From sequence record OQ555404.1: 64,000 bases of DNA, one strand, 5' to 3'. The position numbers and the translations under genes were made by a program. This document shows, piece by piece, positions 2,451 through 63,125 of this stretch (position 1 is its first letter; every line of letters begins with the position of its first letter). Under the pieces are notes generated by a model that saw only the letters and a program-made list of their open reading frames with translations, was not told where the DNA came from and did not search any database. This stretch comes from Escherichia phage vB_EcoP_HC-25922.

Positions 2451-3229
2451 CAGTAGATTCCGTAACTGTTAGTCCTTCGTCGGTTGCAAGCCTTCCGACG
2501 GGGGCTACTCAGCAGTTTACAGCTACAGCAGAAATGAGCGACGGCTCCACAAGCACAACCGGATTTAATTGGTCCGTTGAGGGCGGTGGGGCTGTTTCTG
2601 TTTCTGGGCTATATACTGCACCGAGTACGTCGCAAGAAACCCCAGCAACTATTACGGCTACTAAAGGTGGTAAGTCAGGTACTGCTACAGTTCTATCTGT
2701 TTTTGAACCTGCTACTATTGAAGCCAAAGCTAACATCTCGGGTAAAGTAGGTGGAAGCACCACAGCTTTTACTACAATGTTTACAGCAACTAACTCTTCA
2801 GCAGAAGATTATTCTTTTGTTGTATCTCCAACGTCAGCAGGAACCGTTAGTGCCGCAGGAGTTTTAACTTTAAGTAATGATGCAACTGGCACAGTTACTG
2901 TTAAAGCAACTCATAAAACTCAGTCAGGTGTTGAAGCCACTATAACCTTTACAGGTGTTGTTGCTAAAGCAGCTATTACTGGAAAAACCGTCACTGGTAA
3001 GGTTGGTAGTGATACTGTTACGTTTGCTGAGTTATTTACAGCAACTAACTCTTCAGCAGAAGATTACAACTTCGTATCAAGTCCTCCTGAAATGACTTCA
3101 TCTATCGATGAGAGCACTGGTCTTGTTACCTTGGCTGCTGGCGCTACAGGTGATATCACAATTACTGCTACTCACAAAACACAAACGTCTGTGACAGCAA
3201 CTGCTACGATTACGGTGGTATCAGAGTAA
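1392..3229 (+). CDS. capsid protein long isoform by programmed -1 frameshift (capsid fused to two Ig-like repeats)
   Basis: zero-frame slippery heptamer G_GGA_AAG at 2429-2435, 16 nt before the stop; the -1 frame (ORF 2357-3229) is open and encodes a duplicated module (FTATNSSAEDY...ATHKTQ...). Confidence 0.5.
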
Positions 3230-3387: not shown

Positions 3388-3396
3388 TAATGTATA
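3388..3396 (+). promoter_or_regulatory. TAATGTATA promoter-like motif (candidate phage-sigma promoter)
   Basis: exact 9-mer 33 nt upstream of the ATG at 3430; same motif and spacing recur at 20077 and 35772. Confidence 0.45.
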
Positions 3397-4191: not shown

Positions 4192-6552
4192 ATGATCGTT
4201 TATAATAACCAAGCACCTGATGCAGTGAATAACGTTGGGCAGTTTGGTGCTACTGAAGGCTCTATTGGAGCTTATAAGCAAGCCGCAGAATATGCAGCTG
4301 ACTCCAAATATTGGGCACTGTTAGCAGAGTCTAAGTTTGGTACAATTGATGACCTGATCGCTGAAGTAGAACGTTTGTATCAGCAAGGTGTTCTGATGAA
4401 GCAGGATATCGAAGATCTTAAGCAGGACTTTAAAGATCAAGATGCTCGTCTGATGAGTTTGATTGCTCAAACTAACGCAGCGGTATCAGATGCGAATAAT
4501 GCTGTAGCTCTAATTAATCAGAAACTTATTGAAGTCCAGAACCAGCTTGACGTTCTGTTAGGAATGTCCGTTGATGTAACCACACTTCCTCCGGGAACTC
4601 CGGCTACTGGTTCTTTTAATCCTAACACTGGTGTAATTTCTTTAGGTATCCCAGAAGGCGAACCCGGAAAGGATGGTTCTGTTAAGGATTTAGACACAGC
4701 TCCTACTGGTGTTCCAGAGCTAGGTGACTTGGGTTTCTATGTTGATAAAGATGACAATACCGTCCATAAAACTACTCTAGAGAATATTGCTAACTTAATC
4801 CCATCTGTTCGTTCTGTTTCTGTTAATGGGGGACCAGCTCTTGATGGAGAGGTTGCTCTAACAATCAACAAAGAGACAGTAGGTTTAGGAAATGTTCTGA
4901 ATGTTGCTCAGTACAGTCGTCAAGAGATTAATGACAAATTTGACAAAACTACCAAGACATACCAATCAAAAGCAGAAGCTGATGCTGACGCTCAGTATCG
5001 TCAAGTTGGTGAGAAAGTCTTAGTCTGGGAAGCTACTAAGTATGAGTTCTACACTGTTGCTGCTAACAAAACATTAACTCCAGTTAAAACTGAAGGTAGA
5101 ATTCTTACCGTTAACTCCCGTTCTCCAGATTCCAGTGGTAACATTGACATTACCATTCCAACAGGAAACCCTTCTCTGTATCTTGGTGAGATGGTGATGT
5201 TCCCTTACGACCCATCTAAGAATATCTCCTACCCAGGAGTTCTTCCTGCTGATGGTCGTCTGGTATCAAAAGAATCTGCTTCAGATTTAGGCCCATCCCT
5301 TGTCAGCGGACAGCTCCCTGTTGTTTCAGAAACTGAATGGCAATCGGGGGCTAAACAGTACTTCTCTTGGGGCAAGTTAGCAGACGGTATTACCGATGCG
5401 GATTCTACTAATTTTATCAACATTCGACTCCCTGATTGGACTGGAGGGGAGGCAATAAGAGCACCAGATTCTGATAAAGACTCTCAGTACAATGGGTCTG
5501 TACAGGCTCAGAAACCTTATGTTGTTACTGTAAATAACCAAGCTCCTGATGAGATTACTGGTAATGTGAACATCTCCAGATCAATTTTAGGTGCTGCTTC
5601 TTCTGGAGCAAACTCTGACATTACATCTTTATCTGGACTCACAACACCGCTATCCATCTCTCAAGGTGGTACTGGAGCTAAAAATGCTGCTAGTGCCCGA
5701 TCTAACTTGGGGTTGGGGAGTGTTTCCACTCTAGATAACGTCCCTATCGCTAGTGGTGGGACAGGGGCTGGAGATGCTGCTGGTGCAAGGTTTAATCTTG
5801 GGTTAGGTAACTCAGCCACAATGAATACCGGAACTAACAGTGATAATGTTCTTAAGGTTGGTGATTTTGGAATTGGAAGACCTGACGGCGCTCTTGTTTT
5901 TGATACTACTTCACAAGACCAACTTCTTGCTGGACTTGACACTTATGGGTTGTGTGTGTTTAGGAATAACCAACAAATAGCAGCACCTTGGGACATATGG
6001 AACTACTCCTCAAACCTTTTCTTTAGGGCGGGTGACACATACAGTATGATAAGTATTCCGTTTGAGTCTGCTGGTAAGATAAAAGTTTTTGGTGGTGCAT
6101 CGGGCAGTGGGTGGAAAACCTCAAGGACGATATACGATACTATAAATACAACTGTTGACGTCAATGGCTTTATTAAAGCAGCGTCACCAATAGTTAAGGT
6201 ATTTCATGACGGAAGTTTTGAAACAAATGAACAATCTGATGGAGTTAGTGTTAAGAAAATCTCCACCGGGGTTTATTTAATTTCAGGGTGTCTTGGTCTT
6301 AATTCTGATGCAGGATGGGGTGGGGTAGATGGAGGTTTTGAAATCCCAATAGACCGAAACAAACAACCTAGAGTCTGGCTGGATTATGAGATTAAAGAAG
6401 ATGGTTCTATTTTAGTTAAAACTTATCACAGAATCCATCCAACCTCTCCGGTTTTTGCTAGAAATGAGATAGAAGGTTTCTCTGACGGCGATCCTATTGA
6501 TATCCCGAGTGATGCTTTTATCTCAGTTCGTGTTGAAATGCCATCCAAATAA
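4192..6552 (+). CDS. tail fiber protein
   Basis: 786 aa; C-terminal part has repeated GGTGA...AR.NLGLG tail-fiber-type repeats. Confidence 0.5.
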   Translation: MIVYNNQAPDAVNNVGQFGATEGSIGAYKQAAEYAADSKYWALLAESKFGTIDDLIAEVERLYQQGVLMKQDIEDLKQDFKDQDARLMSLIAQTNAAVSDANNAVALINQKLIEVQNQLDVLLGMSVDVTTLPPGTPATGSFNPNTGVISLGIPEGEPGKDGSVKDLDTAPTGVPELGDLGFYVDKDDNTVHKTTLENIANLIPSVRSVSVNGGPALDGEVALTINKETVGLGNVLNVAQYSRQEINDKFDKTTKTYQSKAEADADAQYRQVGEKVLVWEATKYEFYTVAANKTLTPVKTEGRILTVNSRSPDSSGNIDITIPTGNPSLYLGEMVMFPYDPSKNISYPGVLPADGRLVSKESASDLGPSLVSGQLPVVSETEWQSGAKQYFSWGKLADGITDADSTNFINIRLPDWTGGEAIRAPDSDKDSQYNGSVQAQKPYVVTVNNQAPDEITGNVNISRSILGAASSGANSDITSLSGLTTPLSISQGGTGAKNAASARSNLGLGSVSTLDNVPIASGGTGAGDAAGARFNLGLGNSATMNTGTNSDNVLKVGDFGIGRPDGALVFDTTSQDQLLAGLDTYGLCVFRNNQQIAAPWDIWNYSSNLFFRAGDTYSMISIPFESAGKIKVFGGASGSGWKTSRTIYDTINTTVDVNGFIKAASPIVKVFHDGSFETNEQSDGVSVKKISTGVYLISGCLGLNSDAGWGGVDGGFEIPIDRNKQPRVWLDYEIKEDGSILVKTYHRIHPTSPVFARNEIEGFSDGDPIDIPSDAFISVRVEMPSK

Positions 6553-8795: not shown

Positions 8796-8817
8796 AGCCC
8801 CTTCGGGGGCTTTTAGG
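8796..8817 (+). terminator. rho-independent terminator
   Basis: AGCCCC-TTCG-GGGGCT followed by TTTTAGG. Confidence 0.5.
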
Positions 8818-8880: not shown

Positions 8881-9099
8881 ATGAAAATGATGAAACAGGT
8901 AACTTATGGTCTAGCTTGCTTAGGGACAGGTTTTGTGATTTCCACAGCAGTACCTGTAAATGCAGTAGGCTCTCATTCTATTATAGAAGCTCCTGTAGAG
9001 AAGCTTAGTTCTCAATGTAAACAAAGGACCATTCAAAATAATTTGGTTGTTATTTGCCCAGACGCTCAATCTTCAGCTCTGAGAAAAATTCTTCCTTAA
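8881..9099 (+). CDS. small protein with N-terminal hydrophobic segment (secreted protein or holin candidate)
   Basis: 72 aa, hydrophobic stretch YGLACLGTGFVISTAVPV, directly upstream of the lysozyme gene. Confidence 0.35.
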   Translation: MKMMKQVTYGLACLGTGFVISTAVPVNAVGSHSIIEAPVEKLSSQCKQRTIQNNLVVICPDAQSSALRKILP

Positions 9100-9132: not shown

Positions 9133-9624
9133 ATGGACGCTATCGCATTGCCGCCTGTACAGATGAGCCTAAGTCCGGCTGGTATGGAGTTTATTATGAA
9201 ACATGAAGGCATGAGAACTAAAGCCTATAAAGACTCCGCTGGAATCTGGACTATATGTGTAGGGGCTACGCGCGATATGAATGGGTATCCAGTAAGACAA
9301 GGATTAACGTATTCTATAGAGGATTGTCTAGCTCTGCTAGATAGAGACACACAAGACTCTGTTCGTGCTACTCAGAAAAACATAAGAGTTCCTATGCTAG
9401 CTCATGAATTTGATGCTGTCACTTCTTTCAACTTTAATGTTGGTGGTGGTGCTTTGTCAGCTTCAAAACTTAGGAAAGTGATCAACGGAGATGTGAAGGG
9501 TGATGTTTACTCAGAGTTCTTACGTTGGGATAAGATAACTGTTAAAGGTGTAAAGCAGCGGAGTCCGGGACTTCACAATCGCAGGGTTGCAGAAGCAAAT
9601 CTATACACTACAGGAAAATATTAA
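9133..9624 (+). CDS. lysozyme (T4 e-type, GH24)
   Basis: HEGMRTKAYKDSAGIWTICVGAT reproduces the Glu-x8-Asp-x5-Thr catalytic spacing of T4 lysozyme. Confidence 0.8.
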   Translation: MDAIALPPVQMSLSPAGMEFIMKHEGMRTKAYKDSAGIWTICVGATRDMNGYPVRQGLTYSIEDCLALLDRDTQDSVRATQKNIRVPMLAHEFDAVTSFNFNVGGGALSASKLRKVINGDVKGDVYSEFLRWDKITVKGVKQRSPGLHNRRVAEANLYTTGKY

Positions 9625-15531: not shown

Positions 15532-16329
15532 ATGTCAATTAGAATGGGTATTGAAGAACTAGACCCAATGGTTCAACAGGCTTCAAAGAAGTATGGGATT
15601 CCTGCTGCTTTGATTCATGCTGTAATCCAAAGAGAGTCTAGTGGTCGTCCTACAGTGGCTTCTGGAACTGGTCCTGTAGGTTTAATGCAGATTAGTAAAG
15701 GGTTGGCTAAAGATTACGGTTACAAACTTGAAGATAGGTTAGACCCTGCAAAGAATATTGACATGGGTGCTAGATATTTAAGAGATAACCTGAAAGCTTT
15801 TGACGGTGATGTGAGGAAGGCTTTGGTGGGGTATTCAGAAGGGACTGGTGGTGCTAAGCAAATGTTTGCTGGTAAGAAAGGGTTTACACCTCAAGCTTTA
15901 GATTCAATGAATAATAAGCTGTTCCTACCATTCTTTGATAAGAATACAGCAGCGGCACAAGTGGCTAATCCTGTAGGTGCTTTGAAAGCAGTACAGCCTG
16001 TGGACCAGTTTGATTCTAATACGCTGACTAGAGAAGGTGCTGCAAACGCTCCTACTCAAGCAGAGATAGCTGCAAGCAAGGCTGGAGCTTTAGGTGGTCG
16101 TCCTGTAGAGTTTTACTCTGATGAACAATCTACTGGGGAAAATCAAAAACCTCAACAGAACTTTGGAAATGCTGTATTGGCAGCTGCTTCTATGCTTGCA
16201 GGAAAACAGCCTAACTCTCAAACCGTACAGAGAGCACATGCCCCTACTCAAGCAGGTTCTCGATATAGTCCACAAACACAAGCCGTGCTGAGACGTTTGT
16301 CTAGCATAGGTACTGATATTTACAGATAA
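15532..16329 (+). CDS. internal virion protein with lytic transglycosylase (SLT) domain
   Basis: AVIQRESSGRP...SGTGPVGLMQI matches the SLT catalytic ES and GLMQ motifs. Confidence 0.7.
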   Translation: MSIRMGIEELDPMVQQASKKYGIPAALIHAVIQRESSGRPTVASGTGPVGLMQISKGLAKDYGYKLEDRLDPAKNIDMGARYLRDNLKAFDGDVRKALVGYSEGTGGAKQMFAGKKGFTPQALDSMNNKLFLPFFDKNTAAAQVANPVGALKAVQPVDQFDSNTLTREGAANAPTQAEIAASKAGALGGRPVEFYSDEQSTGENQKPQQNFGNAVLAAASMLAGKQPNSQTVQRAHAPTQAGSRYSPQTQAVLRRLSSIGTDIYR

Positions 16330-20121: not shown

Positions 20122-23100
20122 ATGGCTAATTTAAAATCGTGGGAAGAAGCTTCCAAAGCTCCTGCGTATCTGAACGCCTCTCCAGAGCAACAGGCTCAAA
20201 TGAGAGAACAATACAAGGCAGCAGGGGGCACTATTCCTGAGACTCAACCACAAGAGCAACCACAACAAGAAGAACGAGGTGCTATTGGGGAGTTTGCTCA
20301 AGGTGTGTCTAACGCTCTTCAATCAGGTGGTGCTAACATTGCAGCTAGTGCTGCTAAAGGTTTAGGTGGGCTGGTAGAGATTGGTGAAAACCTAACTGGT
20401 TCGGAAACAAGCTATGGTAAGCGCATTCAAGAGAACTCTAAGCAATTGCTGGAAGAACGCTTATCCAAGATAGAAGATGGTTTTGGTAAAACAGCTGGTC
20501 AGTATGCTGGTGTTGCTGCTGATATCGGTTTGACAGTTGCAAACCCTGCTGTTGCTGCTGCTGTGATTGCAGCTCGTGAAACAGGTCGTGCTTATGCTGA
20601 TCAAACTCCTAAAGAAGATGAAGATAAATCAGTTTTAGATGCCGCTCTTGTTGGTGGCGCTAACTACGCTGCTCAGAAGATCCTTCCGGGCATGACTGGT
20701 ACAGCTTCTACTACTCTTGGTCGTGTAGGACAAAGCGTAGCCTCTAACGCAGTTGCTGGTGCTAAGGGTGGTGCTATTGTAGGTGCTGCTGAAGCTCAGA
20801 ACAAATATGGGGATGATACTACTCTCGCTAACGTCTTAGAAGGGGCTATTGAAGAGGGTGCACTTGGTGCTGCTTATGGTGGGGCGATTGGTGGAGTTCA
20901 TGGGTTAATAAGCCGTCCTAGCCCTCAAGTGTTTGATCGTACTCCTGAGCATGTTAAGACTGACATTGCTGCTGAAGATGAGGCTATTCGTAAAGCTACT
21001 AACGCTGATGAACTTCGTGAAGCCTATGCTAAAGCTGAGAATGCTAATGCTGCCTCTGCTTTAAACCTTCTGGATGAAAATGGTTTCCGAATCACAGATG
21101 CAGTTGCTATGGACTCTCCTGCTGTTCAGCGTATTTTAAATACAGACCAAAGCCGCGCTGAGAAGGCTGCTACGGTTCAGAAAGATAGCTCTAATGTTCC
21201 CGGTCTCAATCCTCTCGCTTCTCCTAAGAAGACTCAAGGTAAAGCTTTTGCTGACAATGAGTACAACCAGAAACAAGCTGTGGCAATGAAAGATGCAATG
21301 GCTGACTACACTAAAGATAACACCAAAGCCCTTACTGATGTTCTAGACAACCTAGACCGAGAGTTAGTAGCTCTGAGAGCAAGTGGTGATTTTACTGGTA
21401 GTGCTATTGACATTAAAAACCGTACTCAAGCTGATCGTGATTTTATTGATGCTTATAAAACTTTTTACAGTGAAGCTAATCGTTTCAAAGCTCGTGATGG
21501 TGAAGACCTAAACAACTTCATTGATAAAGCTACTCAGTTGCAGAAGCTCTCTGAAAATGTTTCTCCAGAAATGAAGAAGGCCATTGGTGGATTAAAGAAA
21601 CTAAAAGGTATGCCTGAAGGTTTTAACCCTATCCAAGATGCTTTCACTCTGAATAATACAGCTAAGTTCATGAGTAACCAAGACCGTGGTTGGACCTCTC
21701 TGACTGATGACGGTTTTCGTGAAGCTCCGGCTCCTGTGTTAGTTAAGAATCCTCTCGGTGCAGCCAAGTATGTACTTAACCGCTTTACTTCCGATCGTGC
21801 TCGTGCTCAACGTGAGAAGCAACAGTCAGCTAATAGTGAAGCTATCCGCTCTTTGGCTAGGGCTGATTTAGAAGTACAACGAGCTAGGACTCAGGCTGAA
21901 GAAGCAAGAGCAAAAATGGAAGAAGAACCAACCACAGAAGACATCAAATTCCGTACTCAAAATGATGCACCTTCCGAACCGGTTCGTGAGGAGCCTTCTG
22001 CTACTACTGTGACGGAAGAAATTCCTTCCTCTCCAGCTCCAACTGAAACACCTCTTACTGCGAGGGATTTGGTTGCTCAAAGACGTGCTCTCCAACAAGC
22101 AGAGCTTAGACGTCAAGAAGCTGAAGCTGCTCAGGCTCAAGAAAGTGCTACACCAGAACCTGAACCACAGCAAGAAGCTCTTACAGCTAGAGAATTAGTA
22201 GCTCAGCGTAGGGCTGTAGCAGAGGCTAAGAAACGTCAAGAGGCAGAAGAAGCAGAACGTGCTAAAGAAGCTCCTAAGGAAGCCGTAGAAGAACCTAAAG
22301 AGAAACCTGAGCCATTACCTGCTCGTGCTCCTAAAGCTCCTGAGAAGGCTCCTGAGCCTGTTAAACCGTCACTTGGTGTAGAGCGTCTAGCTTCTATGTC
22401 AACTGCTGCTCGTCAAGCAACGAAAGACCGTGCTGATCGATTTGCTCGTTCTTTGTATTCGGCTGCTGCTAAAGCTAAAGCCACTGCGGAAAATTTCCTT
22501 TCTTACAAGGGAGATCCTAAAGAGCTTATGCGTCGTATCCGTCAGGAAGACCAAGCAAACAACACACAGCGTCATGAAGAGATGGCTAGAAACCAACTAG
22601 CTTCACAGCAAGGCATTGCTTCTGCTAAATCTCAACATGTTCGTGCTTCTTTTGCTGATTGGGTGAAAGAACGTGGGTTGCCTTCTGATATTGCTACTAA
22701 GGCTTTACGGGCTGAAGAGAAAGGTTTAGGTGGGAACGTCACAAGTCTAGATTCACTGAAGCGAAGAGCTGAGCGTTTATATCAGAAACAAAGAGATGAT
22801 GAGTTTGACCGTCTCTATCGAGAGGCTCTGGAAGAGAATAAAGCTTTTGATAAGAGAGATGCTCCTAAACTGGTAGACCAGAAGAAAGAGCTTCAGGATG
22901 AAATTGGTGCGTTGCTTGATGCTGAACCATTACGTCCTGCTCAGAAAGATGCTATGCGTAGGATTATGGAAGACTTCGTGGAGAGTAAGTTTAAATCTTC
23001 AGAGAGAGCTGGAAGGGTTGAGGCTTTGGAAGTTGGTCAGATGAAGGATGTGTGGGATGGGTTTATTAATACCTATAACCGAGAAGTTAACATGTTCAAC

Positions 23101-26361: not shown

Positions 26362-26950
26362 AGAGTTCTCTCCGTGTCCGTACAACAATCCAGTTTAAAT
26401 AATCTACTGCATCTTCTACAGTAGAATTATTCGCTAGGTAGTATGTATTTCTCTGACTGCCTTCAATGTAGGAACGAGAATCTCCTTTAAAATCACAACC
26501 TTCACGAATCACCTGAATTACCTGAACATGGAAATGTTTCTCTAGTTCTTCAACTTCGGCTTTGAACCCACCATCAGAGAAGACGATAACATCATTCTGT
26601 GATGGGATACGTTGTTGAATACTGCTAACAGCAAGTTTACCCATGCAGGTCTCACCAAACATAGGTTTCAGGTAATCCTCACTAGTTGCAATCATCAAGT
26701 CTCGAACTGACTTACCGTCCCATTCAGGACGGCTATGTTCTTTCCACTCACGGTCGTTGTACAGCTCCATGAACTCATAAAGAGGTAGACCTAATGCAGC
26801 AGCAGCCACTCGATATATAGGCTCCTTAAAAGCCTTTACATGCGGCCTAAACTCGGTGTTACCAAGTGTTTTCTCTAACCAAGAATTAGCGATTGTATCT
26901 TTACCACAACCCGGTGGTCCATTCAGAATTACTACTAATGGTTTACTCAT
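26354..26950 (-). CDS. P-loop kinase, dNMP kinase-like
   Basis: GPPGCGKDT P-loop resembling the T4 gp1 SGKDT signature. Confidence 0.45.
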   Translation of the reverse strand: MSKPLVVILNGPPGCGKDTIANSWLEKTLGNTEFRPHVKAFKEPIYRVAAAALGLPLYEFMELYNDREWKEHSRPEWDGKSVRDLMIATSEDYLKPMFGETCMGKLAVSSIQQRIPSQNDVIVFSDGGFKAEVEELEKHFHVQVIQVIREGCDFKGDSRSYIEGSQRNTYYLANNSTVEDAVDYLNWIVVRTRRELYV

Positions 26951-27600
26951 TATTGAATCATCCCTTGAAGATCTTCTTTATCAAAGTGCTTCTCTACTAC
27001 CGCTTCATACAGATCACGATTCTCTGAATAACGACGATAGAAGGTTCCGTGTGAAATTCCCAACTCTTGCTGGATGTGATCATGTGGGATGCCGAGAAAG
27101 AGCATTGAGAACATGCTTGCCATCTTACGGTTTTCCATAATGTCACTCAGGTCTTGGAAGAAGAAAAAGATTCTAGATTCCAAGAACGGGTCTCCAGTAG
27201 AATCATGCTTATCCATCGCAATCTCTAAAGGACTTTCCCATGAATTCATCTCAGGAGGTCTAAACATATCAGCCTCTGGAATAGAGTAGATACGTCGGTC
27301 TCCAACTGTCTGGCGATTAGAACGAATCGACCAGATGATATTCTTGACACGATAAGTCATGTGCTCAATATCTTTTTCATCAGTGAGCAGAAGTTCTTCT
27401 TGCTTTGCAAACACAAAACGCCAAGCGTTCAGTAATACTTCCTGAGCAACATCCTCTGCCTCGTGATAGTCTTTAATGTCATACATAAAATACTTATGCA
27501 CAACTTTCCAGTTCTCTCGATAAAATTCATCGAAGGTTGGATAATATTTAATAGGAATGCCATGAATACGATAGCGTGTGGGTGTTGTCTTCTTCTTCAT
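26950..27600 (-). CDS. ECF-like sigma factor
   Basis: [14 protein letters not shown] resembles sigma region 2; C-terminal [22 protein letters not shown] resembles a region 4 helix-turn-helix. Confidence 0.5.
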
Positions 27601-27624: not shown

Positions 27625-27849
27625 TTAGGCTACACAGAATAGATACATTGCTGTGTCAGGACAAGGAATGGCTGTCTGAATACCACTTACCTTAATCCAC
27701 ATATCTTCTTCAGAGTCATAATAGGCCCAATAGGATTGGTCTCCATCTACAAAGAACTTAAAAGTTCGTCCCCAAACTTGATTGTTGTATTCCCATACTG
27801 CATGAAGTTGAGTAACGCCTTCTGGTATTGTAAGTTCTGCTCTTATCAT
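27625..27849 (-). CDS. hypothetical protein
   Basis: 74 aa ORF. Confidence 0.35.
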   Translation of the reverse strand: MIRAELTIPEGVTQLHAVWEYNNQVWGRTFKFFVDGDQSYWAYYDSEEDMWIKVSGIQTAIPCPDTAMYLFCVA

Positions 27850-28106
27850 TGTATCCCTCTCTCTTTGAGAGCTTTAAGTAAACCATTGTGATTAGCAGCA
27901 CAGGTTGTATAATTATCCTGATACCACTCAAGTGTTGTTGCAAGTGCTACTCCCTGTCCACTCTGAAGTAAAGGGAGGTCTATATCACACTCAGTTTTTA
28001 GGTTTGTTGGTAAGGGCACTAACTGCCTGCTGTTGTCTCTCGTTGAACAAGCTGACATACTCATCGCTAGCACACACATTGTAAAAAACTGGCTTAGTCT
28101 TTTCAT
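27846..28106 (-). CDS. o-spanin (Rz1-like lipoprotein)
   Basis: signal peptide ending in lipobox-like MSAC; starts inside the 3' end of the i-spanin gene in another frame. Confidence 0.5.
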   Translation of the reverse strand: MKRLSQFFTMCVLAMSMSACSTRDNSRQLVPLPTNLKTECDIDLPLLQSGQGVALATTLEWYQDNYTTCAANHNGLLKALKERGIQ

Positions 28107-28338
28107 AATGCATCTCTTTGTAAATAGTTTCTGTGTTCTTCTTCCAGTTTGATAAACTAGTTAGAACTTTCTGAGCCACTTCATCAGCAGCCTTAGCTCT
28201 CTCAATCTCGATCTCTTGTTGTTTCTTCTCTTGGTCAAGAGTGTTACTATCATTTCTATATTGCTCAAACTTCATGCCACCAAAGAAAATAATAGCTGTG
28301 AAAATAAGAAAGCCTATATTGTTTTGAAGCTTTTCCAT
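27991..28338 (-). CDS. i-spanin (Rz-like)
   Basis: N-terminal transmembrane segment IGFLIFTAIIFFGG then coiled coil; start moved to the ATG with a GGAG RBS just after the terminator. Confidence 0.5.
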   Translation of the reverse strand: MEKLQNNIGFLIFTAIIFFGGMKFEQYRNDSNTLDQEKKQQEIEIERAKAADEVAQKVLTSLSNWKKNTETIYKEMHYEKTKPVFYNVCASDEYVSLFNERQQQAVSALTNKPKN

Positions 28339-28350
28339 TTTAACTCCAAC

Positions 28351-28374
28351 GAAAAAAGCCACCCGAAGGTGGCT
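28351..28374 (-). terminator. rho-independent terminator (minus strand)
   Basis: minus-strand AGCCACC-TTCG-GGTGGCT followed by TTTTTT. Confidence 0.6.
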
Positions 28375-29138: not shown

Positions 29139-29556
29139 ATTAATATTTCCTTATATAAATTTAAGATTGTTGCTCTCTTTGAGCGGTTTGTATACTATAT
29201 ACATTACACTTATACAGATAAGGTTCTATTATACTATAACCTTTTTGGTAGTAGATAATAACAAATAGTAATGTATATATATGGTATAGCTAGTAAAGCT
29301 ATTGCAGGCTTGTATATTGGGCAATTCATAGAATCCCTTGCAAGTACCGAAGGGCAGGAGCCACCTGCGAGATAAAAATAGAGAATTAAGGAAATCCTTG
29401 ATTTAGGTTGTAGGGACTCCTAGGGACTTTGATTCTCTATTTAAAAGAATATTAATTACTTACTACCTAAATAATTAACTAACTTACTTAAACCAAACTC
29501 AAGAATAATAGATAAAAAGATTATTCCTAAGAAAGCTAAAAAGTAAAGGATATAAG
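29139..29556. promoter_or_regulatory. 418-bp AT-rich noncoding region with divergent TAATGTATA motifs, palindromes and direct repeats
   Basis: no ORF of 60 aa or more; TAATGTATA on minus at 29198-29206 and on plus at 29269-29277; inverted repeat AAATAGAGAAT/ATTCTCTATTT; direct repeat TAGGGACT x2. Confidence 0.4.
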
Positions 29557-29686
29557 TTACCATTCAAGTAAACCTTTAAAGTTAGTTTGTTCTACTATCC
29601 TCTGATAATGAAGATTAGAATCAGCTTGTTTCTTTAACATCTCATTATATTTATCTCTGATAGAGTCTTTATAAACTACAGGTTCT

Positions 29687-30964: not shown

Positions 30965-31097
30965 AATATCCAGAGTTGTAGTTTAGGGCGCATTTCTCGG
31001 CCTCTTCTATGTCGTCTGTGTTTAGGATATTAACCCAACCACCAACTTCATCAAAACCCTCTTCTACCTCATTGAACCACACGCTGTATTTCTTCAT
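30918..31097 (-). CDS. hypothetical small protein
   Basis: start set at MKKYSVWF, whose ATG overlaps the upstream stop (ATGA). Confidence 0.3.
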   Translation of the reverse strand: MKKYSVWFNEVEEGFDEVGGWVNILNTDDIEEAEKCALNYNSGYYERNWEHDEILQSSL

Positions 31098-31272
31098 CTT
31101 GATAAGACCCTTCCCCAATCCTTGGTGTAACATCGACCATCAACCCACTTGGTCTCTGATTTAAACTCTTGAGAGATTCTTGTTTCACAGTCTTCTTTAC
31201 TGTAATCACCAAGAGCATCCATCACCCAAAGAAACAGAGCAATTACAATAGACCAGATTAGAAACTTCTTCA
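31094..31272 (-). CDS. small signal-peptide/membrane protein (59 aa, below ORF-track cutoff)
   Basis: MKKFLIWSIVIALFLWVMDA...; ATG overlaps the upstream stop and its own stop overlaps the next ATG. Confidence 0.3.
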
Positions 31273-31662
31273 TCGTATCACCAGAGGCTCTTCAGAGTAC
31301 ACAGGAGAGGTTATTTCTACCGGAGGTGCTGCTCTAAGGTCATTAAGTCTTACGCCCTTCAGCATACCATCTAGGTGGTCCATTTTAGGGATACCTACAG
31401 GGAAGTCATCAATCCAAACATCCACAAAGAAACCCAAGCTCTGAGTGACGGAATCCTTCTGAACACCATTGCAAAAGATAACAGGAATATCTAGACTTGC
31501 TGCATCTGCTAGAAGCTCCTCATTTGAATACCCATTAGGTTGAGCAAAACGATAGGTGACAATACGTACATCATGTCCACGAGATTTCATAAGACCTACA
31601 ATGTGGGTCCACATCTCTTTGTCCACTGTAAAAGTATCATCATAATCTAAACCAATATTCAT
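31270..31662 (-). CDS. hypothetical protein, possible HAD-like phosphatase
   Basis: N-terminal IGLDYDDTF resembles HAD motif I; weak. Confidence 0.3.
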   Translation of the reverse strand: MNIGLDYDDTFTVDKEMWTHIVGLMKSRGHDVRIVTYRFAQPNGYSNEELLADAASLDIPVIFCNGVQKDSVTQSLGFFVDVWIDDFPVGIPKMDHLDGMLKGVRLNDLRAAPPVEITSPVYSEEPLVIR

Positions 31663-39016: not shown

Positions 39017-39202
39017 TTATAGCATACAAAGAATAATAACAAGAGGTAGTGTTATAGCAAAATGTACCAGAACAACACTACCCAGCTTGATAGCTTTAAC
39101 ATCCTCTTCTGCTGGGTTTTCTTTAATTGCTAAATTTCGAGCTTTATATATAACAGTACCAACTATTAACGACCACACGGCCCACACAATCAGTGAAATC
39201 AT
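39017..39202 (-). CDS. small membrane protein
   Basis: 61 aa with two hydrophobic segments. Confidence 0.3.
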   Translation of the reverse strand: MISLIVWAVWSLIVGTVIYKARNLAIKENPAEEDVKAIKLGSVVLVHFAITLPLVIILCML

Positions 39203-39455
39203 ATCAAACCCTCATGCAGTCAACAGGTGGAGAAGGAAAGGAATGACAACAGAGAAGACTACCAGAGCAATGCTGCCATGTTTAATGGGTTTAGCGTCAT
39301 TCGGGTTCTCTTTAAGCATCTGTTTCTGAGCTACATAAACGATACCGCCAACAAAAAATTGCCCATACAGACCATACGATTGCTGAAAACATACTCATAT
39401 CCTTATAAAGAAGTTCGCCCCACCTCTTGAACAAAGAGACAGGGCGGAGGTTTGA

Positions 39456-40630: not shown

Positions 40631-40842
40631 TAGTAATGTACCTTTCCGCTGATATAGAAACGACCTGATTTAAAGTCTTGAGCTTTGTGGATAGTGATCT
40701 TATTAATTGTGCTTTCACAACTTAATAAGAACTTCTTATGAGCGCGAGCTTCTTGACGGGTATTCCTAATACCCATTGACTCTGTACCACTGCTCCAGTG
40801 AATACGAACTACCCAACGTCTTTTCATTGTTCCAAACTCCAT
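40630..40842 (-). CDS. small protein, TRQEAR family paralog 3
   Basis: NTRQEARAHKK...FYISGKVHY. Confidence 0.4.
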   Translation of the reverse strand: MEFGTMKRRWVVRIHWSSGTESMGIRNTRQEARAHKKFLLSCESTINKITIHKAQDFKSGRFYISGKVHY

Positions 40843-41033
40843 TATCTGTCAACCGATTTAGGGACAAACTGCATTACACAGACCTGACTACGAGGGAGAT
40901 TTATTTCACAAGCGGCTCTTCTCGTCTCAATCTTAACGCTAGAATCTGGACCAACGTTAGATATAAATACTCCCATAGCAAATGCCCCAACTACAAAACC
41001 TATAGCTAAGTAAGTAGCTTTTTCTTCTTTCAT
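40842..41033 (-). CDS. small membrane protein
   Basis: 63 aa with hydrophobic N-terminal segment. Confidence 0.3.
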   Translation of the reverse strand: MKEEKATYLAIGFVVGAFAMGVFISNVGPDSSVKIETRRAACEINLPRSQVCVMQFVPKSVDR

Positions 41034-46016: not shown

Positions 46017-46214
46017 TTACCTTTTGTTTAAAATTTCTTTTGTACAAGAAGTCCCGTTACACACGAGAACTGTTTGAGTTATAGAATCGACAACTGTTAC
46101 ATGGCTGCCGCATTGAGTTATGATTTGACCTCTCCCTGAATCTTTAGAGATGCATTCATCAGCGGCGATCGCTGACACACTGAATAAGGAGAGGAAAAAT
46201 AGAATCTTTTTCAT
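46017..46214 (-). CDS. small secreted Cys-rich protein
   Basis: signal-peptide-like MKKILFFLSLFSVSAIA followed by 6 Cys. Confidence 0.35.
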   Translation of the reverse strand: MKKILFFLSLFSVSAIAADECISKDSGRGQIITQCGSHVTVVDSITQTVLVCNGTSCTKEILNKR

Positions 46215-55660: not shown

Positions 55661-56023
55661 TTACTCTGATACCAGAAGGCCCAGAGATTTGCGAATGTAG
55701 TCAATACTACGGAAGTTTCGATAGTTCTCTTGGAAGCGCATCTTTTCAAATTCAGCTTCCTGAAGTTCTAACTCTGCCGCTTTATATCCCGATAAAGCTA
55801 AACTCACCACATCCTGAGGCAAGACATTACGACGGCGAATAAGATATTTATTCGCTTTTAGTTTACCTTGTGCACGAGCCATTTTGGCCTTTGCCGCCTT
55901 GATACCATGAGAAATCCAAAGCAGTTGCTGTTTCAGATCTTCCTCATCCATACCACCTAAGTCATTTGCTACTTTATGAAGCGTAGACAGGTTCACATGG
56001 CCTTTAATGGGGCGTAGGTTCAT
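55661..56023 (-). CDS. hypothetical protein (helical, basic)
   Basis: 120 aa ORF; its ATG overlaps the stop of the small gene 56020-56187. Confidence 0.4.
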   Translation of the reverse strand: MNLRPIKGHVNLSTLHKVANDLGGMDEEDLKQQLLWISHGIKAAKAKMARAQGKLKANKYLIRRRNVLPQDVVSLALSGYKAAELELQEAEFEKMRFQENYRNFRSIDYIRKSLGLLVSE

Positions 56024-56187
56024 AACTTCTCCTGTTTGTCACATTGATTGGTTAGCCAGTTGTAAGACCCTCTGTTATTCTTGCTTAACTCGCAAGATGC
56101 AAAAGAGTACATCCTGACAAACCCCACAGTGGCTAAGCAAATAAAGATTGCTGCCAATAAGAACTTAACTTTCAACTTATTATCCAT
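56020..56187 (-). CDS. small membrane protein (55 aa, below ORF-track cutoff)
   Basis: MDNKLKVKFLLAAIFICLATVGFV...; AAGAAGAGG RBS 5 nt upstream. Confidence 0.3.
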   Translation of the reverse strand: MDNKLKVKFLLAAIFICLATVGFVRMYSFASCELSKNNRGSYNWLTNQCDKQEKL

Positions 56188-57549: not shown

Positions 57550-57807
57550 TCAGTAGAAGGTGTGTGTAGAGTCGTCGTTCATAGATAACCAAACGAAGAA
57601 GACAATCACACAGAAAGCAATAATACCGAGAGTTGCAAGGATTATAGTGTTAGCTAATGTGATATCTAACACGCTTTGCAGATACATAAAGAACTGTACG
57701 ACACCACATACCATCAGCACAACCCCAACGACAATGAGGAGCCAATATGTGCAGAGAAGGACTGCATCTAATAGTGATACATACTTTGGATGATCTTTAT
57801 GTCTCAC
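57550..57807 (-). CDS. small membrane protein (2-3 predicted transmembrane segments)
   Basis: 85 aa, strongly hydrophobic. Confidence 0.35.
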   Translation of the reverse strand: MRHKDHPKYVSLLDAVLLCTYWLLIVVGVVLMVCGVVQFFMYLQSVLDITLANTIILATLGIIAFCVIVFFVWLSMNDDSTHTFY

Positions 57808-58661: not shown

Positions 58662-58928
58662 TTACTTAGTAATAAAGACTGTCATCTTATTCATTACCCA
58701 GCCTATTAACATAAGTAGAGGTAAGAGGAAGATAAAGATCAGCATAAAAGGCCAAAAGAATATTACCGTCCAAATAGAATATTCATCAGGCTTACCACTC
58801 CATGAGGAATGGAAGAAGTTGTAGAGTGTATTGGTTTTGAAGCACCACTTAACTACAATGGCAGCTAACCACCAACCAATAACATAAATCAGGAGGACAT
58901 ACGCTGCTGTAACCATTGACCGTTCCAT
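58662..58928 (-). CDS. small membrane protein
   Basis: 88 aa with 3 hydrophobic segments. Confidence 0.35.
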   Translation of the reverse strand: MERSMVTAAYVLLIYVIGWWLAAIVVKWCFKTNTLYNFFHSSWSGKPDEYSIWTVIFFWPFMLIFIFLLPLLMLIGWVMNKMTVFITK

Positions 58929-59144: not shown

Positions 59145-59471
59145 TCACCACTCCTTACCTGTTGTTGTCACAGAACCACCACACAGCTCACCACGGGAGA
59201 TGAAGTCATAACGTGACCAATCACCTTGGGTAGCCATATCACGATCTGCATAAGCTTTCTCGTCAACAGCACCGCCATTGGAACAAGAAGCACCAGCATA
59301 ACGCATATCAATTTCACCACTAGGAATCTTCTCCCCGCTATGCCAACGGGAAACGCATACACCCTCTACAGCTACTGCACACCACCCATCAGGACGATGC
59401 TGTACACAGCCTGTAAGAGCTACACAGGCGATAAAGATACAGGTTAAGGTAATTACACCACCCCAGCTCAT
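59145..59471 (-). CDS. putative lipoprotein, Cys-rich
   Basis: signal peptide with lipobox LTGC, then a Cys-rich soluble part. Confidence 0.4.
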   Translation of the reverse strand: MSWGGVITLTCIFIACVALTGCVQHRPDGWCAVAVEGVCVSRWHSGEKIPSGEIDMRYAGASCSNGGAVDEKAYADRDMATQGDWSRYDFISRGELCGGSVTTTGKEW

Positions 59472-62663: not shown

Positions 62664-62854
62664 TTGATTAACACCAAATCAGTACGACGTTCGAAGGAAG
62701 GGGAGGATTCACCATTCCACTGAACAAGATAACAGAGAACACCATCAATCGTTGTTCTCCGACGAATAACACCTGTAACAGTTCCACCAACAAGGCGAAC
62801 GGTGTCGCCAACGGTAAATTTAACCTTTGAGCGCATCTCCCGTTTCCTCATTCT
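62660..62854 (-). CDS. hypothetical small protein
   Basis: C-terminal part of ORF 62660-62989 from an internal Met (KFTVGDTVRLVGG...). Confidence 0.3.
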   Translation of the reverse strand, partial: RMRKREMRSKVKFTVGDTVRLVGGTVTGVIRRRTTIDGVLCYLVQWNGESSPSFERRTDLVLIK

Positions 62855-63125
62855 GGCGTTTAATTTCTTCAGTGAGTTGCTTATTAAGATCTTGAATACG
62901 TTTAATCTCCCAACCCAAAGAAGCCAAACGATCGTTACGTGCTTCGATTTGTTCCTGCATTTTAAGTAATTTGGAACGAACATCAGCATTAAAAACTTCT
63001 TCTTGCTTAAGAAGGAACTCGTAACGACGCTTCCAGCTTGCTGATTTGTTTCTTAAAATAATAAATCCTAGAGTAGAAACAGTTACAGTGAGTACGAAAA
63101 GGAACTTATAAACCTCTAAAGACAT
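62820..63125 (-). CDS. membrane-anchored coiled-coil protein
   Basis: N-terminal transmembrane segment FLFVLTVTVSTLGFIIL then helical region. Confidence 0.4.
   Translation of the reverse strand: MSLEVYKFLFVLTVTVSTLGFIILRNKSASWKRRYEFLLKQEEVFNADVRSKLLKMQEQIEARNDRLASLGWEIKRIQDLNKQLTEEIKRQNEETGDALKG

Follow-up and report, generated by a model that had tools for sequence, protein, structure and literature searches.

Two reading frames on the minus strand (27846..28106 and 27991..28338), which overlap out of frame, raise the question of whether they form a spanin pair, and how such a pair would serve lysis when the lysozyme gene (9133..9624, plus strand) is located far away from it. The window, i.e. 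the whole stretch of 64,000 nucleotides analysed here, is judged from its sequence to belong to a phiEco32-like podophage (Gordonclarkvirinae, Suseptimavirus-like) and is ~95-99% identical to phages IME267, SU7 and MLP3; no tRNAs were found within it. We consider it very probable that the locus is a conventional two-component spanin of such a podophage, acting after the holin/endolysin step.

The larger frame (27991..28338, minus strand) encodes the 115-aa i-spanin, the ortholog of phiEco32 phi32_39. Its start is an ATG at 28338 with GGAG just before it, and its stop is at 27991; the ORF lister placed an alternative GTG start at 28362, which is unlikely to be the real one because it falls within the stem of a terminator-like hairpin. 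The protein belongs to the PHROG 1152 family 'Rz-like spanin', which it matches over its full length (E 1e-35), and the orthologs in relatives, including phi32_39, are annotated as Rz-like spanin. Pfam gave no family above threshold for this protein. The hydrophobicity scales show a single N-terminal anchor, with the hydrophobic core IGFLIFTAIIFFGGM at residues ~8-22 (KD19 1.48, and +0.9 kcal/mol over 17 residues on the position-independent Hessa scale, which denotes a short anchor); in the Paul ortholog a TMpred transmembrane domain is annotated at 8-23. A charged helical region follows the core, charged residues making up 32% of the periplasmic part, and the AlphaFold model, of moderate confidence (pLDDT 67.7), predicts helices at 2-75 and 92-110 with short elements between them, as would suit a helical periplasmic domain. 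Cys89 is the single periplasmic cysteine and is invariant in the alignments.

The second frame (27846..28106, minus strand; ATG at 28106, stop at 27846) encodes the 86-aa o-spanin, an Rz1-like outer-membrane lipoprotein and the ortholog of phiEco32 phi32_38. Read in the +1 frame, the gene begins 232 nt inside that of the i-spanin, shares 116 nt with it and continues 145 nt past its end. Reading of the sequence and the alignment gives a lipoprotein signal, in which the signal peptide MKRLSQFFTMCVLAMSMSA ends before C20-S-T, the lipobox is MSA-C and the +2 position is Ser, with no Asp; for the Paul ortholog, the record gives a LipoP SpII site at 19/20. On aligning the homologs, Cys20 and Cys69 were invariant and Cys40 was conserved in 6 of the 7 sequences, so that both subunits hold the periplasmic cysteines for intermolecular disulfides that are described as the rule in spanin complexes (PMC6139136). 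The protein matches PHROG 2425 (E 1e-23), a family labelled 'unknown function', and weakly matches PHROG 456 'Rz-like spanin' (E 6e-4) and Pfam LysC/Rz1-like (E 0.045, below threshold). Homologs were found by tblastn in 174 phage records, and among the matches listed all those in annotated records (23 of 23) lie beneath or next to an annotated Rz-like/i-spanin gene or occupy the corresponding place overlapped with Rz. It may be asked whether this frame is open by chance and only the Rz-like protein is real, since the records of many relatives omit the o-spanin frame or truncate its start (e.g. Bas92 and phiEco32 phi32_38, the start of which is mis-called in its record). Under-annotation of overlapped o-spanins is, however, a documented artefact (260 of 528 cases, PMC6139136), and homologs at 33-40% identity occur in unrelated phage groups with the lipobox Cys and Cys69 invariant. 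Also, the dual-coding 116 nt are more conserved at the DNA level against three relatives (0.90/0.84/0.72) than the single-coding flanks against the same three (0.75/0.78/0.49 and 0.71/0.72/0.61), and relatives bearing an HNH gene at this place rebuild a signal peptide and lipobox for the o-spanin. For practical purposes this refutes the chance frame, the probability of which we regard as negligible. The overlapping Rz/Rz1-type pair proposed in the initial annotation is therefore real, with both frames at the coordinates given there, PHROG matches, invariant cysteines and raised conservation in the overlap.

As read from the records compared, the HNH insertion in SU7, PAS59, Bas86 and Bas87 is a natural experiment that supports the pair. 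The cassette splits the spanin overlap and brings with it a replacement C-terminus for the i-spanin as well as a new signal peptide and lipobox for the o-spanin, so that both frames should stay functional. Its endonuclease has HNH_3+AP2 domains, and two BASEL records annotate the i-spanin as a join of two pieces on either side of the HNH gene. A group I intron was considered for this insert and rejected, as Rfam, even with a permissive threshold, recognised no intron on the SU7 locus; the insert opens with a copy of the i-spanin C-terminus, recoded but in frame, that ends in a stop codon, and on both grounds an intron is less likely than a free-standing homing-endonuclease cassette. A similar split is on record for Shivani/phiR201 as compared to T5, where a GIY-YIG homing endonuclease gene separates the spanins (PMC6139136), and in the SU7 group, as in Shivani, the i-spanin is changed at its extreme C-terminus only and the o-spanin in its signal sequence only (PMC6139136). 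The endonuclease type differs between the two (HNH_3+AP2 versus GIY-YIG), and the window has the uninterrupted overlapped form.

On comparing the pair with known systems, the closest likeness is to the orthologs in Kuravirus, phi32_39/phi32_38 of phiEco32 and gp036/gp035 of Paul (~76-77% protein identity), which likewise overlap in the +1 frame, agree in lipobox and Cys pattern, and lie between a 246/248-aa gene (with terminator) and the sigma-factor gene. Besides sequence divergence, they differ only in one neighbour, which is a 74-aa ORF in the window and a macro-domain (Appr-1-p processing) gene in Kuravirus. The Paul record already annotates the pair as i-/o-spanin, and phiEco32, NJ01, ECBP2 and KBNP1711 have been listed among the overlapped i-spanins of the JH2 family, with an o-spanin group of four (Kongari 2018, PMC6139136). 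The prototype of an overlapped two-component spanin is LysB/LysC of P2, in which the o-spanin gene again begins in the +1 frame within the i-spanin gene and runs on past its end, the i-spanin has an N-terminal TMD and the o-spanin is a lipoprotein; the weak Pfam match of the window o-spanin is to this LysC, and P2-like ESSI2 phages have recognisable homologs of the pair. In P2 the pair is contiguous with the holin and endolysin genes in one lysis cassette, whereas the window pair is 18 kb off and on the other strand. Distant homologs of the pair also lie within canonical holin-endolysin-Rz-Rz1 cassettes, in Salmonella phage Sasha and in the P2-like phage ESSI2_ev129. With lambda Rz/Rz1 the likeness is in plan (an inner-membrane helical subunit, an outer-membrane lipoprotein, periplasmic Cys, and the proposed action after wall degradation), and no sequence homology to the lambda proteins was detectable. 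The lambda Rz1 gene is fully embedded and its protein is proline-rich, whereas the window o-spanin is overlapped and has 3 Pro in its 67 mature residues.

The spanin genes lie in the minus-strand middle-gene block, 18.2 kb from the lysozyme gene, which is part of the structural (late) operon on the plus strand. This bears out the earlier view that the lysis functions are dispersed. This split is conserved across the subfamily and was reported previously; in vAPECPW12, for example, the holin is at 2191-2409, the endolysin at 2439-2930 and the o-spanin at complement 21764-21937 (PMC12733307), and 87-88 kb metagenomic relatives show the same layout. Just downstream of the spanin pair and the 74-aa ORF, and in the same direction, is the gene of a phage sigma factor (26950..27600, minus strand), a homolog of phiEco32 gp36 for which the records of relatives give RNA polymerase sigma factor. 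The terminator scan identified an intrinsic-terminator-like hairpin (28357..28374, minus strand; GCCACC-UUCG-GGUGGC followed by U6) after the upstream 246-aa gene and before the start of the i-spanin; its fold energy is -16.6 kcal/mol (z -2.6), and its counterpart is annotated as a terminator in phage Paul. It probably attenuates transcription into the spanin pair and the sigma-factor gene. Going upstream from the pair, the first promoter-type signal, found by motif search, matches exactly the phiEco32 gp36-sigma middle/late promoter element TAATGTATATA (29196..29206, minus strand; motif as defined in PMC8948821 and PMC4281155); it lies upstream of the 246-aa gene and is thus separated from the spanin genes by the strong-looking terminator. 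A scan for sigma-70 promoters near the spanins gave weak matches that were not clearly above shuffles. From the place of the pair in the middle block, downstream of the gp36-sigma element and the terminator-like hairpin, and from the direction of the sigma-gene operon, we infer that read-through probably yields small amounts of the spanins from mid-infection onwards. Such synthesis would be harmless, since spanins would be inert until the wall is gone. In T4 too the spanin genes (pseT.3/pseT.2) are unlinked from t (holin) and e (endolysin) and stand among non-late genes (PMC6139136), and the same logic would apply there. The T4 spanin genes, however, are separated and non-homologous to the overlapped pair, and holin and endolysin of T4 are also unlinked from each other, whereas the putative holin and the endolysin of the window are adjacent.

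The lysozyme gene (9133..9624, plus strand) encodes a soluble GH24 endolysin of the T4/P22 type (163 aa), which was assigned by Pfam PF00959 (E 1e-30), PHROG 7 and structure alignment; the catalytic triad read from the sequence, E25-x8-D34-x5-T40, follows the Glu-8-Asp/Cys-5-Thr spacing of GH24. Residues 11-163 align to the globular endolysin structures 2anv and 7m5i from their residues 2-7, which leaves a mere 10 residues (MDAIALPPVQ) ahead of the globular part, and no SAR or signal segment was found. The best 19-residue stretch has a KD value of 1.0 and a Hessa value of +10 kcal/mol, and hydrophobicity and structure alignment thus agree with the earlier reading that such a segment is lacking. 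An endolysin of the SAR type, using the pinholin/SAR pathway without need of a large-hole holin, would be in line with the GenBank record of MN03, where a 92%-identical ortholog is labelled 'SAR-endolysin', and with the ZCEC16 paper, which claims an N-terminal signal peptide on its endolysin. Yet the match to the true SAR enzyme R21 (3hde) begins at chain residue 28 as opposed to residues 2-7 in the soluble lysozymes, ten residues are too few for a membrane segment, and the hydrophobicity maxima also speak against it; we hold this pathway to be very unlikely indeed. It was also suggested in the initial annotation that the lysozyme may be virion-associated, in which case it would be an entry enzyme rather than the endolysin, and a conventional holin-endolysin pair would be missing. 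The gene is indeed embedded in the structural operon between the long-fibre and short-fibre genes, and the holin annotation of the neighbouring 8881-9099 is unverified. Against this, mass spectrometry of SU10 identified 34 proteins, among them the flanking gp12, gp13, gp16, gp17 and gp18 with 40-75% coverage, and the detected proteins include neither gp14 nor gp15, so that the lysozyme ortholog was not detected (PMC4281155). The SU10 virion composition obtained by cryo-EM and mass spectrometry, too, has gp6, 9, 11, 12, 13, 16, 17, 18 and 20-24 only (PMC9509320). Degradation of peptidoglycan at SU10 entry is assigned to the ejection protein gp20, a transglycosylase (PMC9509320), which was detected in virions (PMC4281155, PMC9509320). 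Its homolog in the window is a dedicated SLT-domain internal virion/ejection protein (15532..16329, plus strand; Pfam PF01464 SLT, E 6e-25), and by this homology it is the SLT protein and not the GH24 lysozyme that is predicted to be the virion-borne peptidoglycan-degrading enzyme. Also, the ~12 kb of the closest relative that lie beyond the window have no other endolysin annotated, which makes 9133-9624 the sole candidate for lysis from within. A role of the lysozyme in virion entry is therefore largely contradicted, and we consider it very unlikely.

The three small hydrophobic ORFs to which the initial annotation pointed while finding no obvious holin (8881-9099, 57550-57807 and 58662-58928) are present as described, and the first of them does not agree with that finding. 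This gp14-like protein (8881..9099, plus strand, 72 aa) is encoded 34 nt upstream of the lysozyme gene, matches PHROG 11161 'holin' (E 1e-40) and bears the name holin in the records of SU10, SU7, Paul and phiEco32. The adjacency is kept even in divergent relatives and contigs, and the protein occurs in 98 phage records, which in number and host breakdown equal the records matching the holin-lysozyme DNA; the gene is hence both adjacent to and co-inherited with the endolysin gene. According to the SU10 authors, both genes are missing from 7-11 and GAP52. Still, the caution of the initial annotation has some merit, since the 'holin' label appears to be based on position and copied names and the hydrophobic segment looks like a signal peptide or SAR domain. 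For this segment (residues 7-26) KD19 is 1.66 and the Hessa values are +2.75 to +4.6, as compared to +3.0/+4.4 for the o-spanin signal peptide, so that it is closer to a signal peptide or SAR domain than to a stable TM helix. The conserved positions in it are Y9-G10-x2-C13-x3-G17; a P-V-x-A motif at 25-28 is invariant and is followed by a variable linker, and the C-terminal Cys46...Cys59 motif is again invariant, with a beta-hairpin predicted at low confidence (the AlphaFold model as a whole is also of low confidence, pLDDT 53). The hydrophilic, highly charged C-terminal tail of holins was not found, the last 44 residues being mildly charged. A role in the membrane is suggested by the conserved YGxxCxxxG and by a distant homolog of higher hydrophobicity. 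The family is confined to this phage clade: a search of 5.8 billion proteins for remote homologs gave 24 close clusters only, a profile search of 1.84 billion representatives added two further short relatives and some noise, and PHROG, Pfam and NCBIfam linked the protein to no characterised holin family. Two other features were examined and rejected, viz. an MKMM dual-start motif, which resembles that of lambda S and is unconserved among relatives, and a lipobox, as GLAC/GLIC misfits the pattern on reading the sequence and is too near the N-terminus. We conclude that the gp14-like protein is the best positional candidate for the holin, and put the chance that it is the holin at about even.

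If it is not the holin, it could be a Sec-exported, cleaved 44-residue disulfide-bonded periplasmic peptide, or a SAR-tethered protein like T4 RI, itself a SAR-tethered periplasmic protein, and would serve as a lysis regulator or in an unrelated periplasmic function. The true holin would then be sought among the small membrane proteins of the middle or early block, at 39017-39202, 40842-41033, 57550-57807 or 58662-58928, for example, or in something unrecognised. This is somewhat doubtful to us. In its favour, the segment is of signal-peptide grade on the Hessa scale, and across 24 close relatives P25-V26-x-A28 is invariant ahead of the variable linker and the C-terminal Cys...Cys. For the ortholog in ZCEC16 (Kuravirus) the published DeepTMHMM/SignalP run gives a signal peptide and no TMD, and the MN03 annotators kept their ortholog as hypothetical. 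The lack of conservation of MKMM and the absence of relatives among known holins, with a name that seems positional, fit as well, and several bona fide two-TMD small proteins are encoded elsewhere in the window. The location of the gene speaks for a holin instead: it is always directly upstream of the endolysin gene, within the late operon and with a strong ribosome-binding site, and in a divergent SU10-adaptor phage the adjacency is kept where the gp14-like protein is distant (E 1e-10 against the family profile) and other fibre genes stand upstream. Y9, G10, C13 and G17 are conserved even in the members found by profile only, which is unusual for a mere signal peptide, and one of these members lacks a basic n-region and has a segment of higher hydrophobicity. 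The alternative holin candidates, moreover, are located in the early/middle blocks, and 57550-57807 and 58662-58928, the two that were scanned, matched no PHROG family. More tentatively, with some doubt on our part, the protein called holin throughout Gordonclarkvirinae may instead be a disulfide-stapled mini-protein that is exported to the periplasm, either cleaved or SAR-tethered, and the gene of which is locked to that of a soluble endolysin. In that event, the cytoplasmic lysozyme would be released by an unrecognised holin, possibly a small middle/early membrane protein, and the gp14-like protein would represent a novel type of regulator or partner in lysis, acting in the periplasm.

Returning to the two-component spanin as the preferred reading of the locus, the course of lysis may be proposed as follows. 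The N-terminal helix of the 115-aa i-spanin would anchor it in the inner membrane with its helical domain extending into the periplasm, and the 86-aa o-spanin would be processed at the lipobox Cys20 and sorted to the outer membrane, as its +2 residue is Ser and not Asp. If lambda Rz/Rz1 and P2 LysB/LysC are taken as models, the C-terminal regions of the two may bind to form a disulfide-linked bridge spanning the periplasm, which the peptidoglycan mesh would keep in check. Lysis would start from the late structural operon, where a membrane trigger, most likely the putative holin 8881-9099 encoded just upstream, would let the soluble endolysin (9133-9624) reach the periplasm. Once the wall is degraded, the freed spanin complexes would fuse or disrupt the inner and outer membranes. 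In the literature searched we found no functional test of any spanin or holin of Gordonclarkvirinae, this phage included.

Both the spanin pair and the split layout of the lysis genes are already known for phiEco32-like phages. The value of the present analysis is mainly as a check on the labels that circulate in databases, with little significance beyond correct annotation: the o-spanin is often absent or truncated in records, and 'SAR-endolysin' on some orthologs is unsupported. The fields concerned by the holin label are phage therapy with Kuravirus/Suseptimavirus and endolysin engineering. As a minor observation, a further hairpin (8796..8815, plus strand; GCCCC-UUCG-GGGGC), which was read from the sequence and is absent from the terminator-scan output because its T run is short, lies between the long-tail-fibre gene and the gp14-like gene and so parallels the hairpin that precedes the spanin pair.

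The Rz-like ORF and the out-of-frame lipoprotein ORF were both found where the initial annotation had placed them. The i-spanin (Rz-like) gene runs from 28338 to 27991 on the minus strand (ATG start with GGAG eight bases 5′, 115 aa) and the o-spanin gene from 28106 to 27846 on the same strand (86 aa), the latter in the +1 frame relative to the former, with 116 nt common to both genes. At the i-spanin N-terminus is a hydrophobic core, IGFLIFTAIIFFGGM, after which comes a charged region that AlphaFold, given 21 homologs, models with moderate confidence as two helices, a long one at 2-75 and another at 92-110, joined by a short linker. The o-spanin has a signal peptide, MKRLSQFFTMCVLAMSMSA, followed by Cys-Ser-Thr. 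PHROG 1152 'Rz-like spanin' is matched by the i-spanin (1e-35) and the unnamed PHROG 2425 by the o-spanin (1e-23), which also gives weak matches to PHROG 456 'Rz-like spanin' and Pfam LysC. On searching with tblastn, o-spanin homologs were found in 174 phage records, among them those of Erwinia Ounavirinae, Salmonella Sashavirus and P2-like ESSI2 phages, in which the identity is 33-40%; among the matches listed in annotated records, all are under or beside an annotated Rz-like/i-spanin gene or at the same Rz-overlapped position. Invariant cysteines in the alignments are, in the o-spanin, Cys20 (lipobox) and Cys69 and, in the i-spanin, Cys89, consistent with the disulfide rule for two-component spanins (PMC6139136). 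At the DNA level, the 116 nt read in two frames are better conserved than the single-coding sequence on either side, whether the comparison is with Paul, Bas92 or an 88-kb metagenomic relative. Such homologs, the invariant cysteines and the raised conservation of the overlap indicate, on sequence evidence, that the o-spanin ORF is a real gene and not a chance frame. Together the two genes make up an ordinary two-component spanin of the overlapped type.

In SU7, PAS59, Bas86 and Bas87, an insert of ~545 bp carrying an HNH_3+AP2 homing-endonuclease gene lies exactly within the Rz/Rz1 overlap (2561-3042 in the SU7 locus, also in the Bas87 locus; the empty site is at ~28055/28054 of the window). 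The start of the insert encodes a synonymously recoded i-spanin C-terminus (GLFNERQQQAAEALKLKN-stop in these relatives vs SLFNERQQQAVSALTNKPKN-stop in the window), and its 3′ end carries, in another frame and within the 3′ end of the HNH gene, the sequence for a new signal peptide of the o-spanin, with its lipobox (MLTKKKQKSCLVIFLASSLMA followed by C). From the original o-spanin start, a stop codon is reached after 17 codons in the HNH-bearing relatives, and the HNH frame, in its conserved N-terminal part, is without a canonical start codon. That both spanins are kept despite the invasion argues strongly, if indirectly, for a need for both. Rfam gave no group I intron signature at the insertion, and because of this the two-piece 'join' annotation of two BASEL records is doubtful. 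An endonuclease between the spanins has a published precedent in T5 vs Shivani/phiR201, except that theirs is GIY-YIG (PMC6139136).

Each of two queries, 3 kb around the spanins and 1 kb around the lysozyme, matched 98 phage records, all of them from Escherichia or Shigella phages that belong to the phiEco32 group (Gordonclarkvirinae). The closest relatives are IME267, SU7, MLP3 and related Suseptimavirus genomes (95-99.7% identity). The gene order is that of SU10 and phiEco32, with the late structural operon on the plus strand up to ~24.6 kb and the remainder forming a minus-strand middle/early block. The dispersal of the lysis genes noted initially is real, is conserved in relatives and has already been reported: a Kuravirus genome paper places holin and endolysin at ~2.2-2.9 kb and the o-spanin at ~21.8 kb on the complement strand (PMC12733307). 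The split layout is also present in 87-88-kb metagenomic relatives, and T4 sets a precedent for spanin genes lying apart from those of holin and endolysin (PMC6139136). In Sasha and ESSI2_ev129, the homologous spanin pair ends a textbook holin-endolysin-spanin cassette. The pair itself is likewise known in phiEco32-like phages. The 2018 spanin survey lists PhiEco32, NJ01, ECBP2 and KBNP1711 among the overlapped i-spanins of the JH2 family, and their o-spanins as a group of four (PMC6139136); phi32_39 is annotated 'Rz-like spanin' in the phiEco32 record, and the phage Paul record annotates both subunits with topology notes, plus an upstream terminator.

The ORF at 9133-9624 on the plus strand encodes a GH24 phage lysozyme (PF00959, 1e-30) with the catalytic triad E25-x8-D34-x5-T40. 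As initially stated, it has no signal or SAR segment: in alignments to globular enzymes (P22 lysozyme 2anv; 7m5i), its residues 11-163 pair with a stretch that begins at residues 2-7 of those structures, whereas the alignment with the phage 21 SAR enzyme (3hde) begins only at residue 28 of the latter. Just ten residues stand before the fold, and there is no hydrophobic window anywhere in the protein. It may be noted that the 92% identical ortholog of phage MN03 is labelled 'SAR-endolysin' in its record and that the Kuravirus enzyme is described as a SAR endolysin in the 2026 ZCEC16 paper; these labels are unsupported, as the globular fold starts after 10 residues. The proposal that the lysozyme may be virion-associated is contradicted by data on SU10. 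Mass spectrometry of SU10 detected 34 proteins, including gp12, gp13, gp16, gp17 and gp18 at 40-75% coverage, and not gp14 and gp15, the holin and lysozyme orthologs by position (PMC4281155). Cryo-EM with mass spectrometry gave gp6, 9, 11-13, 16-18 and 20-24 as virion proteins and ascribed the breakdown of the wall at entry to the ejection protein gp20, a transglycosylase (PMC9509320), whose window homolog (15532-16329, plus strand) has an SLT domain (6e-25). The evidence thus says that the lysozyme is not packaged. No second lysin or holin is present in the ~12 kb outside the window, as seen in the closest complete relative.

The initial annotation saw no obvious holin, yet a conserved positional candidate exists in the gp14-like ORF (8881-9099, plus strand), 34 nt upstream of the lysozyme with a strong ribosome-binding site; the remark holds in that this is a putative holin of atypical sequence. 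It matches PHROG 11161 'holin' (1e-40) and is so labelled in many records, and no functional study of this 'holin' was found in the literature. We regard it as the best holin candidate, with the chances evenly balanced. A rival reading to be taken seriously, though somewhat less likely, is that the protein is exported to the periplasm or tethered there by a SAR segment and acts as a partner or regulator, the true holin lying elsewhere. The family is restricted to this phage clade, with 98 records and 24 clusters at 90% identity, to which an exhaustive profile search added two short distant relatives. The protein's sole hydrophobic segment scores about the same as the cleaved signal peptide of the o-spanin, unlike those segments of the window that are plainly transmembrane helices; for the ortholog in the ZCEC16 paper, SignalP/DeepTMHMM likewise gave nothing but a signal peptide. 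The segment is followed by an invariant P-V-x-A, a variable linker and an invariant Cys46...Cys59 motif, and the MKMM 'dual start' is not conserved, all of which speak against a holin. What favours a holin is that Y9, G10, C13 and G17 within the segment are kept even in distant members, and that one such member, without the basic n-region and with a more hydrophobic segment, is directly upstream of a 59%-identical lysozyme on a contig with different fibre genes. Given these residues and this adjacency, the gp14-like protein is therefore treated as functionally tied to the endolysin.

The promoter element of the gp36 sigma factor is tAATGTAtA (PMC8948821, PMC4281155), with exact matches at 3388(+), 20077(+), 29198(-), 29269(+) and 35772(-). 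The minus-strand copy at 29206-29196, upstream of the 246-aa gene that precedes the i-spanin, reads TAATGTATATA. GC-rich hairpins with a UUCG tetraloop and a U tract directly precede both lysis loci, namely GCCACC-UUCG-GGUGGC-U6 at 28357-28374 (-), between the 246-aa gene and the i-spanin and annotated as a terminator in Paul, and a similar one at 8796-8815 (+), after the long-fibre gene and before the gp14-like/endolysin pair. This suggests that the lysis genes are expressed by attenuated read-through. In the simplest reading, both loci would be expressed at a reduced level by read-through from phage-sigma promoters, and the spanins would be made from mid-infection onward, an early synthesis that, going by the established lambda model, should do no harm. 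The element TAATGTATA is present as two exact copies in opposite orientation, at 29198(-) and 29269(+) (29196-29277), within the 320 bp of intergenic sequence that lie 5′ of the 246-aa gene; transcription from the plus-strand copy would run antisense to the middle genes.

Other small membrane and lipoprotein genes lie on the minus strand. The 108-aa early-block protein at 59145-59471 has a lipoprotein-type N-terminus (ALTG followed by C) and matches Pfam PF24052 'Phage lipoprotein family' (E 3e-36); it could be a superinfection-exclusion or receptor-masking lipoprotein. The 101-aa early protein at 62820-63125 has an N-terminal transmembrane segment and then a highly charged coiled-coil-like region, an i-spanin-like architecture, but a lipoprotein ORF to partner it is absent, and it matches no family. 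The middle and early blocks also encode small proteins (35-65 aa), membrane-bound or secreted, at 39017-39202 (61 aa, two TMDs), 39212-39319, 40842-41033, 29456-29563, 31094-31273, 46017-46214 (65 aa, Cys-rich, with a signal peptide) and 56020-56187; a Pfam scan of those at 39017-39202, 40842-41033 and 46017-46214 gave no match. The divergent 88-kb metagenomic relative has extra ORFs, absent from the window, between its 250-aa gene and the i-spanin (4588-4815), one product being of 75 aa with a long Ser/Asp-rich tail.
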